The notes below the pieces were generated by a model that worked only from the letters and a program-made list of their open reading frames with translations, did not search any database and was not told the DNA's origin. A DNA stretch of 64,000 bases. Origin: Candidatus Bathyarchaeota archaeon. Lineage in GTDB: Archaea; Thermoproteota; Bathyarchaeia; Bathyarchaeales; Bathycorpusculaceae. Location: the NCBI GenBank assembly GCA_963717465.1, contig OY970340.1:96001-160000 (forward strand), in the 5' to 3' direction. Positions 26,777 to 37,474 of the stretch are shown here, piece by piece (the first letter of the stretch is position 1; each line of letters starts with the position of its first letter). A program made the translations under genes and the position numbers.

Positions 26777-29092
26777 TTATGGTCCAATAGGTCCGATGTT
26801 GGCTGAGTACACTTTTGCAAGATTAACTTTGAAGCACCAAGCTCCAAGTTCAGGACTAAGCTGCTCTGGACTATCTGGCACTGTAACGTTGATGTTCCAG
26901 TCTGCCCATCCATAAAGTGTTGGTTCCTCAGCTGGTAATTCAGGACGCCACCAGCCATGCTCGGGTGAAACGATTTTTGGATTTACTCCGAAGTCGTAAC
27001 GTACTGTCTGCATGCATCTGCCAAGCGGCGTCTCAATGTAAATCCATTCGCCATCGCCAATGCCCATGTTACGAGCCGTCAGTGGATGCATTTTTACACG
27101 TGGAAACGGACGCAAATGACGCATCAATGTTAAATGTCGATGTTCGCCATGCTGTGCTTCTTGGAATCTGGCTCCACTGCACATAATCAACGGATAATCT
27201 TTTGCAATATCAGGCGCACTTACCGGAGTCCAAGCGCACTCCACATAGTACGGCAGAGGATCAAACCCAAAGTCCTCCAGAATCGTTGAGTAGAATACAA
27301 CTTTGCCTTCAGGGGTTCCGAAGCCTCTAATCAATCCAGTGGTTGGATCAATTTGCTCGTACTTCTTGAACGTGGGGTTCCATGGTGGTACACCTTTCCA
27401 TTCGCCTATAACTTGCTTACGTGTCCAGCCTACTGGCTCATAGAACCAATCTTGGAACTGCTCTAAAGTCTTCCATTTCCAAACTCTATCGATTTTTTCG
27501 TTACCCAACATTTTAGCAGCAATGTGTCGGAATATTACCGCGTCGTCTTCTAAGTCCCACAATCCCGGTATCTTTTGAGCTACTGCACGATCGCCTGCAA
27601 TCTCAAACTCGATTGATCCTTGACATGAAATGGTTGCATATCCAGAAGGTCTCTCGAATTGACTAGTACCAGGCAGCACATAATCTGCTAACATGGCCTC
27701 AGGTGTCATCGAAGCGCATTCCACATAAACGAACAGTTCAAGCTTCTTAAGAGCTTCATAAATCTTCTTAGTGTTCGGATAACCTCGCATTGGACCTATT
27801 TCACCAGCCAACATCGCCTTAACAGGGTAAGGTTTTTCCGTCAAAATTGCCTCTATCGTTGCAGGCCAATTTGGAGCAATTGGTCCGGTATGTGGACCAC
27901 CCTTCCAATAGCCTTTGTCCATTCCTGCCTCAACAAGCGCTGCACCACCTGGCATCGTTAGCATCTTATACTTGTCCGACCCTATCTGTTTCTCCATTAT
28001 GCCCATATCAGTTTCATTAGCACAATCTGCAGCGGCTTCAGCACCCGAATAGAACTTGGGTTTTTGGTGCAGATATTCTCCGCCTTCTATGTCTATGTTG
28101 CCTGTTAACGCGGGCAGCATATATTTTGATCGAACGTTGTTTAATGAGTTCCTGCCTGCCGATTCGATTGCATAACCGAATGGGAAAGTGCATGGACTGT
28201 TTTTCACTACCCACCTAGCTGCCTCTCTGATTCTCTCGGCAGGAATCCAAGTTATTTCCGCAGCTTTCTCAGGAGTATACTGCTTGGCTCTTTCTTTGAG
28301 CTTGTCAAATCCAAAAGTCCACTTCTCCACGAAATCATGATCGTACAAGTCTTCTTCGATGATCACGTTTATCATAGCCATATTTAGTGCAGTGTCAGTT
28401 CCAGGCCTAATCGCCAACCACATTTCAGAAAGTCTAGTTGTTTCCGTATATTTTGGATCGACATTGAGCATTTTTACGCCAGCCTCTATTCCTGCAACAA
28501 ATCCTGGCCAAGAATACGTCCAAGATTCACTTGGGTTTGTGCCAGTTGTAAAGATACCCTTTGTTTTACCGGGAGTTATCATTGCATACGTTAATCCCAC
28601 GCCGTAGCCTAATCCTAAGGCTTGGTACGTGGGTCCAGCTCATGTGGTAGCTGCAGCAGAACCCCAGTTTGGGGAGCCTATCAACATACAGAGTTGATAC
28701 AGTCCCAAAGCAAGGTTTGCGGCTCGACCTGTGCCGTGGAATCCGCATACGGATTCGCCGCCATTCTTTGCTATGATTTCTTTTAGTTTATCAGATATTT
28801 CACTAATTGCTTGTTCCCAAGATATTTTCTGCCATTTGCCTTCGCCACGCTTGCCTATACGCTTCATCGGGTACATTGGCCTATCCTTATGATAAATGTA
28901 CTCAACACCATACTTCCACTTCTGACAATAAGGACCAGGATTAAATGGACTATCCCAATCAGGCTCAATCTTTGTGATTTTTCCGTTCTCAACCGTCTCG
29001 ACAAGTTGGCAGGAACCAGTACTGCAAAAACCGCAAACGCATCTATGAATCCCATCGAAACTCTTTGGATCTTCAAGTTTTTCACTCATCAT
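26777..29092 (-). CDS. Mo/W-bis-PGD oxidoreductase, acetylene-hydratase-like clade, copy 1; 771 aa with in-frame TGA (codon 151, probable selenocysteine)
   Basis: CxxCxxxxC..C Fe-S motif, ISWEQA, IRPGTD, ADYVLP and HGWW motifs. ORFs 28640..29092 and 26777..28600 are in the same frame and separated only by TGA at 28642-28640. Confidence 0.9.
28596..28633 (-). promoter_or_regulatory. SECIS-like hairpin 6 nt downstream of the in-frame UGA (copy 1)
   Basis: CCCACG-UA-CC-A-AGCCU-UAGGAUU-AGGCU-AC-GG-CGUGGG; conserved in the paralog. Confidence 0.7.
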
Positions 29093-29167
29093 TCTATCTC
29101 CTATTTTCTCTTTAACCCATTTTTATTGTGCTTTCAACACAAGCCTTAACATATGCGGTCTGATTAC

Positions 29168-29279
29168 TATTTAAAGTTGAATTATAACCGTTTTTTGCTT
29201 TTGCTACAAAAATAGGAATTATCATAAAATAGCAGGGACACTTGTCGCATTATGAATAAAATTTTGATACAATGTGCAA
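29168..29279 (-). promoter_or_regulatory. Regulon promoter module 3 (Mo/W enzyme 1)
   Basis: tatttaaa, ttttgctacaaaa, and tacaatgtg at 100 bp. Confidence 0.8.
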
Positions 29280-29434
29280 TTTCCTTTTTTCTGGTTTGCA
29301 TTGCAAAACAAAACAAGTACTAAACACAATTCAACAACACTATTCTTGGATCTTTCCGTTGAACTATTAAACAAAAGATGAAAGCGCTAAAAAAACCTAA
29401 TTCACACCCATAGATATTGAGTCCTTAACTTAAG

Positions 29435-29736
29435 AAATTGACAACACAACAGCTAGTGGCTGCAGGAAATTAGGAGATACGTTAGTATCTACCTGTAGCC
29501 ACTACCAAGGCTATAGGAAAGAGGGATTAACTTTCCTATAGCCATCTACCTAAAGGTGAATAAATTTTGTTATTCTGTACGAAGCATCGTTCGCCTATCT
29601 TGCCTGTATTTCACATTAAATTCTCATGGACTGCGTAGTGCTTGGGGATGCCGTGATAGCTTGATGCCGAGCCCTCGTTTACCGTTGTTGGATGAGACAA
29701 TCTGTCCTTGATTTTTACTCTTTCAGTTTTACTTTT
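29435..29736 (-). ncRNA. Candidate small RNA C, with two 13-bp hairpins at its 3' end; homologous to sRNA A
   Basis: Downstream of promoter module 4 with no convincing CDS. Hairpins at 29454-29504 and 29509-29543. Shares both flanks with 30331-30405. Confidence 0.55.
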
Positions 29737-29758
29737 TTATTATCAATTGCTCTGTGGA

Positions 29759-29867
29759 TATTTAAATTAAATTATAAGCTGACTTTGAGTTTCGCAACAA
29801 AAAAAGAAATTTCACCCAATCATCATTTACATAATTGCATTAAAGCATCATTTTTAGCACAATGTGG
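29759..29867 (-). promoter_or_regulatory. Regulon promoter module 4 (no downstream CDS)
   Basis: tatttaaa, tttcgcaacaaaa, and cacaatgtg at 99 bp. Confidence 0.75.
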
Positions 29868-30001
29868 TATCCGTCTTTTTTTGATTTTCATCGAATCGTT
29901 TGTGCATAGAAAAGGCAATATTGGAAACCATTAAAAAGTACACGTTTAAAGTGAACGTTTTTTGATTACCCAAAAAAATCGGCAATTTAGCAGAAAGTGG
30001 T

Positions 30002-30080
30002 AAAAAAAAAAAGTAATCGATCAGAATATTTAGAAGCACTCATAACAAACTGACGACGGTCGCGAGGTACCGACGACCGC
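30002..30080 (-). ncRNA. Candidate small RNA B (about 80 nt; 5' GC hairpin, U11 terminator)
   Basis: GCGGUCG...CGACCGU hairpin starts at the expected TSS of module 5 and ends in 11 U. Confidence 0.6.
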
Positions 30081-30102
30081 ATCGTTATGGTAACGTGTAG
30101 GA

Positions 30103-30210
30103 TATTTAAGTTAAATTGCAAGCAAGTTACGGGTTTTGCCACAAAACTAGATAATAGATTTAATCTCTGCCGATTAAGTTGCATTCAGAACAATTTTCTA
30201 ACACAATGTG
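30103..30210 (-). promoter_or_regulatory. Regulon promoter module 5 (no downstream CDS)
   Basis: tatttaag, ttttgccacaaaa, and cacaatgtg at 99 bp. Confidence 0.8.
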
Positions 30211-30319
30211 GAGGGTTCTTCTTTGGTTATTATTGAAGTATTACGGTAGAGTTTACGTATTATTTGTATTAGAGGCCTCTAAAGCCATCTTTAAATATGC
30301 ATATTTTTCTTAATAATAA

Positions 30320-30427
30320 TAAAAATCGCAAAATTGACAACCTGCCAGATGGTGGCTACAGGTTGGGAGTTTGGCTTTCCTGTGGCCACCACCTAGAGGT
30401 GAATAGCGCGTCTTTAGAATGACGCGC
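30320..30427 (-). ncRNA. Candidate small RNA A (about 105 nt; 7-bp 5' hairpin plus long hairpin)
   Basis: GCGCGUC/GACGCGC begins at the expected TSS of module 6. Long stem at 30340-30400. U-rich end. Confidence 0.65.
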
Positions 30428-30449
30428 AGTCTATTTGCATCCTTATGGA

Positions 30450-30560
30450 TATTTAAGTTAAGTCGTAAACCGTTTTTGGGTTTTGCTACAAAACACGAAT
30501 ATAAATTTAATCAATATCAATTTAATTGCATTAATACAACATTTTTTAACACATTGTGCA
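30450..30560 (-). promoter_or_regulatory. Regulon promoter module 6 (no downstream CDS)
   Basis: tatttaag, ttttgctacaaaa, and cacattgtg at 100 bp. Confidence 0.8.
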
Positions 30561-30762
30561 AGTCGCTTTAACGTTCCTCCGATTAAAAGAAACAGAAGAT
30601 AGAACAGAAATTCAAAGCGGAATTGTAAAGCAAAGTTCAGCTTAATGCTTGAACTGTCACACTAAGCAAATTACTAAAAATAGTAATATTTGGCGTTATG
30701 CACAAAAGACTCACTATTCGCCAATTTAGCCATTAGTAGAAACTATTATCTCGTCAGCGTTT

Positions 30763-31341
30763 TTAAGAACGGGATTTAAGGGGTTTTCGAGTTGAAATTT
30801 CAGGTTGGAATAAAGCATTCAAGCTTCGCAATGAGAACGGCCTTGGAAACTTATTGCCTGTGCGGAACATAACGCTACGTGTTTCCACATGTGGTCGCTG
30901 AGGTAATAACAGTGTTTCTTTTTGCACTTCCTTAGACAATTCTACGAAACCATCATAGTTCTTATGCACAGATATCATGACCCAGTTCGTTGATTCTAAG
31001 CCTTGATCCTCTATAGCGCAAAGCACTTCAGGATGTCTCTGCATTAATTCACGAACTTTGCTAGTTTGTTCTGGTGTTATCACTTCAGTAGTTGAGGCAA
31101 ATGTAAATACGATAACATCTAGCCCCATTTTGTACAAGTTAGGGATTATAGTGTACTCTTTTATGTAACCATCCTGCTCCAGCTTCCTTCTCCTCCTAGA
31201 CAATGTCGTGTTACTAATTCCTAAAATTCTAGCAATTTCTCTATCGCTTTTACCGCCTAGCGCCATTAAGGCAAATAGAACTTTCAGGTTTTCCAAGGCT
31301 TTTCTATCTAACGTATCGTGCGTGCTCAAAAACTTATTCAT
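30763..31341 (-). CDS. Lrp/AsnC-like regulator (paralog 2)
   Basis: Same HTH as 22833..23441. Confidence 0.85.
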   Translation of the reverse strand: MNKFLSTHDTLDRKALENLKVLFALMALGGKSDREIARILGISNTTLSRRRRKLEQDGYIKEYTIIPNLYKMGLDVIVFTFASTTEVITPEQTSKVRELMQRHPEVLCAIEDQGLESTNWVMISVHKNYDGFVELSKEVQKETLLLPQRPHVETRSVMFRTGNKFPRPFSLRSLNALFQPEISTRKPLKSRS

Positions 31342-34570: not shown

Positions 34571-34682
34571 TATTTAAGGTTAAATTATAAGTCAGTTTCA
34601 GCTTTTGCCACAAAATAAGACATTTCAACAATTGTCAATGACATTATCACATAATGAACAGAGTTTTTGGCACAATGTGCAA
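34571..34682 (-). promoter_or_regulatory. Regulon promoter module 7 (mttB-like 2)
   Basis: tatttaag, ttttgccacaaaa, and cacaatgtg at 100 bp. Confidence 0.8.
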
Positions 34683-34828: not shown

Positions 34829-37145
34829 TTAAGGTCCCATGGGCCCGATGTTGGCTGAGTATACTTTTGCAAGATTAGCCTTGAAGCACCATGCACCAAG
34901 TTCAGGGCTAAGATGCTCTGGGCCGTCAGGCACTGTAACGTTAATGTTCCAGTCTGCCCATCCATAAAGCGTTGGTTCCTCAGCCGGCAACTCAGGACGC
35001 CACCAGCCGTGTTCTGGGTCGATTATCTTGGGGTTAACACCAAAATCATAACGTACTGTCTGTCTGCATCTGCCAAGCGGTGTTTCAATGTAAACCCATT
35101 CGCCATCTCCGATACCCATATTCCGTGCTGTAAGTGGATGCATCTTTACACGTGGAACCGGACGTAAATGACGCATTAACGTGAGATGTCGATGTTCACC
35201 ATGCTGCGCTTCTTGGAATCTGGCTCCACTGCACATAATCAGCGGATAGTCTTTTGCAATGTCTGGTGCACTGATCGGTGTCCATGCACATTCCACATAG
35301 TACGGCAACGGATTGTACCCAAGTTCTTCTAAGATGGTTGAGTAGAACGCAACTTTGCCCTCAGGGGTACCAAAGCCTCTAACCAGCCCAGTCTCTGGAT
35401 CGATCTCTTCGTATTTCTTGAACCTTGGCTCATAGGGCGGAACACCCTTCCATTCTTCAATAACTTGCTTTCGTGTCCAACCAGCGGGCTCGTAGAACCA
35501 AGCTTGAAATTCCTCTAGAGTCTTCCAATGCCAAACTTCATCAACTCTTTGTTTACCGACAACGGCGACAGCTAGGTCTCTGAATATGATGCTGTCGTCT
35601 TTTAGATCCCAAAGTCCAGGTATTTTCTGGGGTAGTGCGCGGTCGCCTGCAATCTCAAACTCAATCTGGCCTTGACATGAACAGGTTGCGTACCCAGATG
35701 GCCTCTCAAATTGACTGGTACCGGGCAGCACGTAATCTGCTATCATAGCCTCTGGAGTCATGGAAGCGCATTCTACGTAAACAAAGAGGTCAAGTTTCTT
35801 TAAAGCCTCGTAAACTTTCTTGGTGTTCGGATAGCCTCTCATGGGACCTACTTCACCGGAAAGCATAGCTTTAATGGGGTATGGTTTTCCCGTTAAAATC
35901 GTATCTATCGTGCTAGGGAAGTTTGGACCTATTGGCCCAGCGGATGGAACTCCCTTCCAGTATCCTTTATCCATTCCTGCAGCAATAATTGCACCTGCGC
36001 CAGGATAAGCCAGCATCTTATACTTGTCCGCTCCTATCTGGTTTGACATCATTGACATGTCACAAGCGTTTATGACATCAGTATGCATCTCAGTACCTGA
36101 GTGGAATTTGGGTTTTGCATGCAGATATTCGCCGCCTTCTACGTCAATGTTGCCTGTTAACGCAGGTAACATATATTTTGATCGGATGTTGCTCAAAGAG
36201 TTCCTGCCTGCTGATTCGATTGCGTAGCCGAATGGAAAATCGCATGGATGATTTTTCGCTATAAATCGGGCAGCTTCTTTTATCTTTTCAGCTGGAATCC
36301 AAGTAATTTCCGCAGCCTTCTCAGGCGTATACTGCTTAACGCGCTCTTTGAGCTTATCAAATCCAAAACACCATTTCTCCACAAAATCATGATCATACAA
36401 GTCCTCCTCAATGAGAACGTTCAACATAGCCATATTCAGCGCAGTATCAGTTCCAGGCCTAATTGCTAACCAAACTTCTGAAAGTCTACCAGTCTCAGTA
36501 AATCTTGGATCAACAGTGAGCATTTTTACGCCAGCATCTACACCTGCAACAAACCCAGGCCACGAATACGTCCAAGACTCTCTTGGGTTCGTACCAGATG
36601 CAAAGATACCCTTAGTCTTACCAGGAATTATGTTTGCATACGTTAATCCCACGCCATAGCCTACTCCTAAGGCTTGGATCGTGGGTCCGGCTCATGTCTG
36701 AGCAGCAGCGGAACCAAAGTTTGGGCTACCCATCATGATAAAGAAAGCAGCCTGTCCAAGACCCAGATTCGCAGCTTCGCCCGGTGCCGCTAAAGCCGCA
36801 AATTGATTCTCCACCGTACTTTTCCTTGATTTCTTTCACTTTTGTGGATATTTCTTCGGTCGCTTGTTCCCATGATATTCTTTGCCATTTGCCTTCTCCA
36901 CGTTTGCCTATTCTTTTTATTGGATACATCGGTCTGTCCTTGTTGTAAATGTATTCTAAACTGTACTTCCATTTTACACAATAGGGGCCCGGATTGAACG
37001 GGCTTTCCCAATCAGGCTCGACCTTTGTGATTTTTCCATTCTCAACAGTCTCAACAAGTTGACAGGAACCAGTACTGCAAAAACCGCAAACACACCTGTG
37101 AATCCCATCGAAACTCTTTGGATCTTCAAGTTTTTCACTCATCAT
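34829..37145 (-). CDS. Mo/W-bis-PGD oxidoreductase, copy 2; in-frame TGA at 36694-36692; one extra base near 36776 (probable sequencing indel)
   Basis: Span is 2317 nt, i.e. copy 1 length plus 1. The corrected frame reads GTGRAANLGLG...GSPNFGSAAAQT-TGA-AGPTIQALG. Confidence 0.88.
36648..36685 (-). promoter_or_regulatory. SECIS-like hairpin 6 nt downstream of the in-frame UGA (copy 2)
   Basis: CCCACG-AU-CCA-AGCCU-UAGGAGU-AGGCU-A-UGG-CGUGGG. Confidence 0.7.
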
Positions 37146-37204
37146 CCTATCTCCTATTTTTACTGTGTTTTTAGCACAAAAATGAATGTATGCAGCCTGA
37201 TGGA

Positions 37205-37316
37205 TATTTAAGGTTAGATTATAAGGCAGTTTGGATTTTTGCCACAAAATAAGGCATATAAGCAATTCTAATTGACATTATAGCATGAAAAGTATTTATT
37301 TTGGCACAATGTGCAA
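37205..37316 (-). promoter_or_regulatory. Regulon promoter module 8 (Mo/W enzyme 2)
   Basis: tatttaag, ttttgccacaaaa, and cacaatgtg at 100 bp. Confidence 0.8.
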
Positions 37317-37474
37317 CAGCACTTTAGGAACCTTTGTTAGGTACGAAAAACCACTCTTTTCTTGTTGATTGCTTTCCAGTTAGTTTTTGACTGATTAGTT
37401 AGACTTTGCAATTTAGAGTATCCTGAGATTGCTTTCTAGAGGAAATGATTCTTCGAGATTCTGAAAAATTCTAA

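Follow-up and report, generated by a model that had tools for sequence, protein, structure and literature searches.

Mechanisms are known for few archaeal small RNAs (sRNAs). For two of M. mazei, sRNA154 and sRNA41, a masking of ribosome-binding sites is described (PMC5867862), and the same is described for sRNA162 (PMC3510493); the mode of action proposed here for a family of archaeal RNAs, and its connection with methyl-group metabolism, are those described for sRNA154 (by means of its loop 2), sRNA41 and sRNA162 (PMC5867862, PMC3510493). However, no similarity in sequence or in covariance model joins the family to these RNAs, and the Rfam scans were empty; the sources describe the M. mazei sRNAs as single genes, whereas here there are about 11 paralogues built on one scaffold, behind a promoter shared with their presumed targets, and the proposal made here, unlike those RNAs, is a prediction from sequence.

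A second point of comparison is LhrC1-5 of Listeria monocytogenes, described as multicopy homologous sRNAs, poor in G and under one regulator, in which C-rich motifs, found in the loops and also in a stretch that is single-stranded, bind the purine-rich sequence preceding the start codon and so prevent translation (PMC4132741). Judged by that description, the present family resembles LhrC1-5 in having several copies behind one type of promoter, G-poor loops, a single-stranded stretch similar to an anti-Shine-Dalgarno (anti-SD) sequence and, in eight of twelve loops, a C-rich motif. The LhrC RNAs are, however, bacterial and unrelated in sequence, and the family differs from them in its much longer, sequence-conserved stem, in its three types of loop and in a promoter common to it and the operons presumed to be its targets. 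A tandem arrangement occurs among some LhrC genes. The family belongs neither to the M. mazei sRNA families nor to LhrC, and no archaeal family of multicopy sibling sRNAs was found in the literature searched.

The locus considered here lies in a window of 64,000 nucleotides (contig OY970340.1, positions 96,001 to 160,000, forward strand) from a Candidatus Bathyarchaeota archaeon. The genome is a single contig of 3.05 Mb with 40% G+C, and it is archaeal, its single rRNA locus scoring 1475 bits with the archaeal SSU model versus 1089 with the bacterial one. Two RNAs predicted in this window, here called A and C, would be members of a set of about 11 paralogous genes for sibling base-pairing sRNAs that mask ribosome-binding sites, a reading in which, taken as a whole, our belief and our doubt are evenly balanced. 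Sibling sRNAs are in any case a better description than the “scaffold plus guide” put forward in an earlier, sequence-only reading, which in the sense of an RNA-guided effector is unsupported, because no effector gene is associated with the copies.

Predicted RNA genes, promoter modules and hairpins in the window

Between two minus-strand genes there is a spacer of 1.67 kb without credible ORFs (29093-30762), and no small ORF that was convincing or conserved was found on the minus strand of 29380-30450. The spacer contains three tandem predicted RNA genes, A, B and C, and four copies of a promoter module of about 115 nt, made up, as read on the minus strand, of two palindromic boxes, one distal and one proximal (the latter with two half-sites of five bases and a three-base spacer), and of a TATA box at a fixed distance. 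The genes that flank it in the window encode a Mo-oxidoreductase with an in-frame TGA (28640-28642), an MttB-like methyltransferase, a corrinoid protein and HTH_24/TrmB-like regulators, and a second operon of such genes is present in the same window (Pfam domains). The features of the spacer, in the direction of the minus strand, and the repeats that mark them are the following:

30447..30560, minus strand: promoter module 4, which would drive C (repeats D1, D2 and D4; module scan, site 126450 minus); TATA box about 30448-30457, proximal palindromic box 30481-30493, distal palindromic box 30550-30558
30321..30428, minus strand: predicted small RNA gene C, about 108 nt (sequence, fold, covariance-model match of 92.5 bits)
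30406-30427, minus strand: 5′ GC hairpin of C
30391-30405, minus strand: single-stranded 5′ motif of C
30343-30398, minus strand: long hairpin of C, with core arms 30350-30362 and 30379-30391
30363-30378, minus strand: apical loop of C
30330-30342, minus strand: conserved tail of C, with a T-run at 30321-30325
30100..30215, minus strand: promoter module 3, which would drive B (reference copy of D1, D4; module scan); TATA box about 30102-30111, proximal palindromic box 30134-30146, distal box 30202-30210
30002..30078, minus strand: predicted small RNA gene B, about 77 nt (module site 126103 minus)
29756..29870, minus strand: promoter module 2, upstream of A (D1, D2 and D4; site 125759 minus); TATA box about 29758-29767, proximal box 29790-29803, distal palindromic box 29858-29866
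29389..29735, minus strand: predicted RNA gene A (inverted repeats I18 and I25; fold; covariance-model match of 26 bits)
29563-29735, minus strand: unique leader of A, followed by the shared 5′ motif, 29548-29562
29509-29543, minus strand: hairpin 1 of A
29454-29504, minus strand: hairpin 2 of A
29435-29446, minus strand: conserved tail of A, with a run of 7 T at 29389-29395
29093..29280, minus strand: promoter module 1 and 5′ UTR of the Mo-oxidoreductase gene (ATG at 29092); TATA box 29168-29177, proximal box 29199-29211, ribosome-binding region 29095-29108
29454-29466 with 29492-29504: inverted repeat of hairpin 2 of A (I25/I18 set), 13 nt, 92%
29509-29521 with 29531-29543: inverted repeat of hairpin 1 of A, 13 nt, 100%
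30347-30362 with 30379-30394: inverted repeat of the hairpin of C (I12 set), 16 nt, 88%
29548-29562 and 30391-30405: direct repeat (D14/D5), 15 nt, 93%
29435-29466 and 30331-30362: direct repeat (D14/D5), 32 nt, 78%

C has its 5′ hairpin about 20-25 nt downstream of the TATA box. B has the same type of promoter, followed by a different, single-copy body whose fold is weakly better than that of shuffles (z -1.95) and by a run of 11 T (30002-30012); the length of about 345 nt given to A assumes a start behind module 2. Neither the body of B nor the leader of A has a second copy in the genome (blastn). The loop of hairpin 2 of A is antisense to 29095-29108, the ribosome-binding region of the Mo-oxidoreductase gene, and in inverted repeat I16 (14 nt) positions 29466-29479 are 93% complementary to the 5′ UTR of the same gene (29093..29280).

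The sequence-only reading had located three hairpins, at 29454-29504, 29509-29543 and 30351-30390, and the inverted-repeat listing contains them there, under the identifiers I25, I18 and I12 (I18 and I25 being those of A); the flanks that it had seen as common to A and C are genuine direct repeats (D14, D5). The extended stem of about 21 bp that it had attributed to A belongs instead to C, which has 21 pairs in the minus-strand fold, and the stems of A have 13 pairs in hairpin 1 and about 13 in hairpin 2. On the minus strand the fold of C (30320-30432) reaches -47.5 kcal/mol (z -5.75) and that of A (29435-29565) reaches -47.3 kcal/mol (z -5.62), and none of the 200 shuffles equaled either value; in both window copies the fold of the plus strand is slightly better still, at -48.4 and -50.3 kcal/mol.

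A structured RNA family and the promoter it shares

A covariance model, R1, built from five copies (the first copies having come from BLAST and motif scans), gives 10 sense matches in the genome, scoring between 99 and 25.7 bits, together with a degenerate one of 19.2 bits. These 11 copies occupy six genomic places, and the remaining matches of R1 are reverse-strand echoes of the same loci; in other words, what had been described as two loci is a family of about 11 members at six places, a real family of structured RNAs with a conserved stem. Its layout begins with a TATA box and a spacer of about 20-25 nt; after these come a 5′ hairpin rich in G and C, about 15 nt of single-stranded motif, the long hairpin, a tail that five copies conserve, and a T-run. 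A TATA box and a promoter module, as predicted from the sequence, precede each of the 11 copies in one and the same orientation, and T-runs, as read from the sequence, come about 15-65 nt past the hairpin in 8 of them. A and the copies at genome positions 1217097 and 2496773 form a subtype with a double hairpin and a longer leader; both A and copy 2496773 lie immediately upstream of a Mo-oxidoreductase operon's promoter module, a placement that is synteny between paralogous loci. The neighbours of all 11 copies are MttB-like, corrinoid, Mo-oxidoreductase, HTH regulator, SDR or CrtC-like genes, and two copies, 1217978 and the degenerate 2987229, run straight into genes in the manner of leaders.

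The conservation of the fold was tested on the model-fitted alignment of the 10 sense matches, where 93.8% of 192 cells form standard pairs and double-sided changes appear in 8 of 21 pairs, versus 3.0 +/- 1.2 in shuffles (none of 500 reaching 8), figures that overstate independence because the sequences are paralogues and the alignment leans to the model. When the partner is slid by 1-3 columns, pairing drops to 21-50%. The claim that changes in the stem preserve pairing is therefore borne out among the paralogues, and all of the covariation comes from those of one genome, because no orthologues were found. The sequence of the stem is itself conserved, 2 of 15 pairs being invariant and 5 more varying on one side only, and the apical loops are unpaired in the minimum-energy folds.

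As for the strand, the alignment of the family holds 17 G-U cells versus 2 A-C cells, and both A-C cells sit in the two window copies, so that the strand is undecidable from A and C alone. The doubt expressed on this point in the sequence-only reading was thus correct for those two copies, where both the A-C cells and the plus-strand folds uphold it, but the data of the family favor the minus strand, since the 17 G-U pairs would turn into mismatches if the RNA were that of the opposite strand. Together with the polarity of the promoter and the T-runs, the G-U cells make it very likely that the RNA is that of the minus strand of the window.

The family corresponds to none in Rfam, in keeping with the sequence-only reading, which could assign it to no known family: a scan of the whole window with Rfam 15 at gathering thresholds returned only a tRNA, and a permissive scan of 28900-31000 returned eight weak matches to unrelated families, far below the gathering scores. 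With R1, no orthologues were found in 36 genomes of the same genus and 24 of the same order (E<=0.001), nor in 40 genomes of the same genus (E<=1); the two same-genus sets overlap in 36 genomes, giving 0 of 64 related genomes in total, in which a subset of the first-look candidates was scored. When species-representative genomes were searched for exact occurrences of a degenerate pattern covering the 5′ motif and the stem, one chance match appeared, in a coding region of an unrelated MAG; metagenome contigs gave none. So far as the 64 related genomes show, the family is restricted to this one.

The promoter extends beyond the RNA genes. In the genome, the pattern of proximal box and TATA box has 22 sites, and 19 of these show a fixed geometry of 45-46 nt; seven of the 19 precede RNA genes (six of the hairpin family, and B) and twelve precede operons or genes, of which seven are of Mo-oxidoreductases with an in-frame TGA, two MttB-like, one MtmB-like and two of other kinds. 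The polarity of the module is fixed, because before protein genes it always points at the gene, with the ATG about 85 nt past the TATA box. The Mo-oxidoreductase has about 10 paralogues in the genome, with 68-82% identity, and no match at E<=1e-30 in 45 genomes of the same genus; its relatives have only 35-42% identity and are found in 12 of 400 genomes sampled across the phylum. The genome encodes SepSecS and two predicted tRNA-Sec genes, and the promoter of the family would be one common to operons of selenium-containing enzymes.

Loops, candidate targets and competing explanations

The mechanism that we prefer would be as follows. The sibling sRNA genes would stand behind one and the same archaeal module, with its two palindromic boxes and TATA box, which would be common to the operons for Mo-oxidoreductases (with the in-frame TGA), MttB-like methyltransferases and corrinoid proteins; as the module is shared, the sRNAs should be made together with the regulon. 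Each RNA would consist of a GC-rich 5′ hairpin, a short anti-SD-like motif, a long hairpin with a C/U-rich loop, and a U-rich tail with the T-run, and its loop, possibly also its 5′ motif, would pair with ribosome-binding sites of the regulon, in such a way that the initiation of translation would be blocked. In the loops of type 2 (hairpin 2 of A, and copies 1217500 and 2796800), the proposed target is the ribosome-binding site of the Mo-oxidoreductase. At least some members of the family probably do block the ribosome-binding sites of these operons; transcription, termination, target binding and the direction of the regulation are what we infer from the sequence.

There are twelve apical loops, all of them G-poor and C/U-rich, among which three types recur. 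Type 1, of 16 nt, is conserved in C and in copies 1217978 and 2488172, is shortened at 2793720 and is partly kept at 2987229, and the 5′ hairpins of the copies that carry this C-type loop have diverged; type 2 is that of copies 1217500 and 2796800 and, in part, of hairpin 2 of A; type 3 is that of the first hairpins of the three double-hairpin copies. The loops of the window trio are therefore unrelated to one another, as had been noted, but this does not extend to the family, and the notion of a freely variable loop fails with the C-type loop, which three copies conserve and a fourth has in shortened form. In eight of the twelve loops there is, as read by eye, the C-rich four-base motif known from descriptions of Gram-positive sRNAs (PMC4132741), and three of the other four hold a related C/U-rich motif. 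The single-stranded 5′ motif contains a run of seven bases identical with the 3′ end of the 16S rRNA of the host.

The Mo-oxidoreductase paralogues have one conserved ribosome-binding region, to which the type 2 loop is antisense. When the loops were compared with the start regions of 1562 long ORFs, 7 of the 10 Mo-oxidoreductase paralogues fell in the top 2% for loop 1217500, as did 8 of 10 for loop 2796800, while with hairpin 2 of A the best 3.5% took in 7 of 10. All of this amounts to about one evolutionary event, because the start regions are paralogous and the three loops homologous. The strongest duplex, of -31.3 kcal/mol versus a background minimum of -24.7 in the 1562 start regions, joins two tandem antisense sites in one loop to two tandem sites in the leader of paralogue 616633. 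With the three type-2 loops, 6-7 of 12 regulon 5′ UTRs rank in the top 5% of 1200 random genomic windows. In the stricter control, in which the loops themselves were shuffled, 2796800 was equaled in 1 of 300 cases, 1217500 in 5-10 of 300, and hairpin 2 of A in 18-23 of 300, the last a marginal result of which a part is composition, because C/U-rich loops pair readily with purine-rich leaders. The antisense support thus appears good for the two copies 2796800 and 1217500, and marginal for hairpin 2 of A.

The remaining loops, that is, the C-type loops (C and three others), that of hairpin 1 of A and the others, stood at chance level against the regulon leaders. No exact target of at least 10 nt was found near a start codon, and nothing above chance came from a duplex scan of the C-type loop over 12,599 candidate start regions. 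The loop of hairpin 1 of A has a complementarity of 10 in 11 to the coding region just after the post-TGA hairpin in two Mo-oxidoreductase paralogues, which we treat as chance because the other double-hairpin copies lack a matching change to their neighboring paralogues. Between the 5′ motif and the start region of an unannotated regulon gene of about 130 aa, pairing is better than with any one of 1200 random windows; this gene has no Pfam match and its start region recurs in five paralogues, but the pairing is weak evidence, because the partner of the 5′ motif is a very strong Shine-Dalgarno sequence.

Alternatively, the copies could be cis-acting 5′ leader modules, in which, for instance, the anti-SD-like 5′ motif would fold onto its own gene's ribosome-binding site, the stand-alone copies being decayed or orphaned. 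Two of the 11 copies do enter a gene without a T-run, 1217978 that of an SDR and the degenerate 2987229 a CrtC-like gene, and these two are better described as 5′ leaders of genes; another CrtC-like gene follows downstream of copy 2796800, at a distance of about 270 nt, and A and 2496773 lie upstream of Mo-oxidoreductase genes. However, a T-run and a complete second module separate A and 2496773 from the Mo-oxidoreductase gene, T-runs follow 8 of the 11 copies, and C, 176374 and 2793720 have no same-strand gene downstream, so that a location in the 5′ UTR, as a riboswitch or cis-leader would have, fits only 2 of 11; for the family as a whole we consider this explanation unlikely. The leader-like copies suggest, therefore, that what was duplicated may have been a unit of promoter plus leader, some copies of which became stand-alone RNAs.

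Another possibility, also rather improbable for the family, is that of a protein-binding RNA, a sponge or scaffold whose stem, C-type loop and U-rich tail would be recognized by, for example, an Lsm-type chaperone or a regulator of the regulon. It would account for the C-type loop, near-identical in three copies and retained in part by two others although their 5′ hairpins have diverged, for the lack of any convincing mRNA target of this loop, and for the conservation of the stem in its sequence and not only in its pairing. The antisense matches of the type-2 loops, on the other hand, are better explained by RNA-RNA pairing, and no consistent partner appears among the neighbors except the HTH regulators, whose domains bind DNA. 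For the hairpin of C (30351-30390), a protein partner is a fair alternative.

Far less probable is a miniature mobile or palindromic repeat (MITE- or REP-like) without function as RNA. Such elements are, like the family, short intergenic inverted repeats, and several intergenic copies, some in tandem clusters, do recall them, but there are just 11 copies at 6 places; each stands behind a TATA box in the same fixed orientation and within one set of related gene clusters, and none is inside a gene; their flanks are conserved but asymmetric, and in DNA the bases of the 17 G-U pairs would be mismatched. The sequence-only reading had itself named many dispersed copies with target-site duplications, or an absence of covariation, as what would speak against a structured RNA; what was found is a low copy number, no duplicated flanking bases (the flanks of all copies having been read by eye) and covariation. 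An operator acting at the level of DNA was also considered and is unlikely.

Finally, a selenocysteine-insertion signal, acting in trans or from the upstream leader to decode the TGA of the Mo-oxidoreductase, can practically be dismissed, in spite of the tie between the family and a Mo-oxidoreductase regulon with an in-frame TGA, of the SepSecS and two predicted tRNA-Sec genes, of Mo-oxidoreductase 3′ UTRs that seem too short for a conventional archaeal element (the eight 3′ regions examined run into T-rich stretches no more than about 30 nt past the stop, with no shared structure) and of the fact that no Rfam SECIS model matches the gene region, because the Rfam SECIS families do not match the hairpins either, six Mo-oxidoreductase paralogues have no member of the family nearby, and a hairpin directly after the TGA in the coding sequence, with a lower helix invariant in 9 of 9 paralogues and an upper helix that holds in 7 of 9, is a simpler candidate. 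Archaeal SECIS elements are, like the family, hairpin RNA elements tied to selenoprotein genes, but the models described for them have an internal purine loop together with a short upper stem of G/C, or else a kink-turn-like core (PMC13188914), and the hairpins of the family have neither an internal loop nor another feature of the euryarchaeal or Asgard types so described; theirs is an uninterrupted long stem with an open loop, and they form separate units, located upstream of the selenoprotein genes or at a distance from them, not parts of 3′ UTRs.

The regulon and the meaning of the family

Within the reading of sibling sRNAs, a network of cross-talk can be imagined, in which a regulator would switch on its own Mo-oxidoreductase or methyltransferase operon together with a sibling sRNA, the loop of which would block the other, paralogous operons. 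We give this extension a small chance. If it were true, a hierarchy of substrates would be encoded in RNA, and the family would be the first multicopy sRNA system in Archaea with a “scaffold plus exchangeable antisense loop”, born and expanded with a recently amplified gene family in a single lineage.

The circuit is legible from one genome, in its shared promoter, its two operator boxes, its HTH regulators, about 10 operons and about 11 sRNA genes. If the masking of ribosome-binding sites were unconfirmed, the family would still be an unusually clear example of the duplication of a promoter plus leader; if confirmed, it would show a family of regulatory RNAs arising and diversifying together with an amplified family of metabolic genes, and would offer a simple test system for the RNA-based control of translation in Archaea.

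Promoter module of the regulon

The regulon, in which operons for Mo-oxidoreductases, MttB-like proteins and corrinoid proteins are joined by predicted RNA genes, is defined by a promoter module that combines a TATA box with two palindromic boxes, one distal and one proximal; in the proximal box, three bases separate two half-sites of five bases each. This module is common to the operon genes and the RNA genes, and it occurs with fixed geometry at 19 sites genome-wide, among them the following in the window:

29165-29280, 29756-29870, 30100-30215 and 30447-30560: promoter module sites
34571-34615 and about 37200-37330: further promoter module sites

Several sites adjoin genes for HTH_24/TrmB-like regulators, and the palindromic boxes are candidate operator sites for these neighbours.

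Predicted RNA genes and their associated genes

One gene behind the module is distinct:

30002-30078, minus strand: predicted RNA gene B, with a run of 11 Ts as its 3′ end

Despite having the same module, its body is unrelated to the RNA family (about 11 predicted small-RNA genes with a long conserved-stem hairpin and a single-stranded 5′ motif); no second copy of this body was found elsewhere in the genome, and its fold is only weakly better than that of shuffles (z -1.95). Two further features involve the family itself, and are given in coordinates of the whole genome contig (C1):

C1:1216279-1216698 and 2493367-2493762, with sites near 2783821, 2784751 and 2833913: family of proteins of about 130 aa
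C1:1218043-1218833 (locus L037, 6044-6834): SDR gene into which the RNA-family copy at 1217978 runs

The genes for the proteins of about 130 aa, for which there is no Pfam match, are located in the regulon's gene clusters. A single very strong ribosome-binding region, with full complementarity to the RNA family's 5′ motif, is shared by all five. The SDR gene is split: one ORF encodes 171 aa and the other 107 aa, and jointly they correspond to one SDR domain.

In-frame TGA codons and predicted selenocysteine machinery

28640-28642, minus strand: in-frame TGA of the Mo-oxidoreductase gene, at about codon 150
28596-28633, minus strand: hairpin directly 3′ of this TGA, inside the coding sequence
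34829-37265, minus strand: second Mo-oxidoreductase copy
C1:845695-846923 and 2829638-2829723, outside the window: two tRNA-Sec genes (ARAGORN prediction) and a SepSecS gene

The in-frame TGA is also present in eight paralogues genome-wide, and the lower helix of the hairpin that follows it is invariant in 9/9 copies, synonymous third positions included. In the second window copy, the stretch upstream of the TGA is out of frame: codon 139 reads TAG and, counted from the ATG, the TGA lies at nucleotide 451, as against 450 in the other copies. Either this copy is a pseudogene or the assembly is wrong by one base here.

Rfam SECIS models gave no match in the Mo-oxidoreductase gene region. Archaeal SECIS elements, according to passages of a review (PMC13188914), sit in 3′ UTRs, and an element within this coding sequence would therefore be unusual. 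In the eight Mo-oxidoreductase 3′ regions examined, T-rich runs lie no more than about 30 nt past the stop, and no common conserved structure was found.

One predicted tRNA-Sec gene directly adjoins the SepSecS gene (400 bits), and neither a SelA domain nor a bacterial SelB winged-helix domain was found in the genome; this combination of genes points to an archaeal-type Sec pathway, which would serve the Mo-oxidoreductase paralogues, roughly ten in number, whose genes contain the in-frame TGA.
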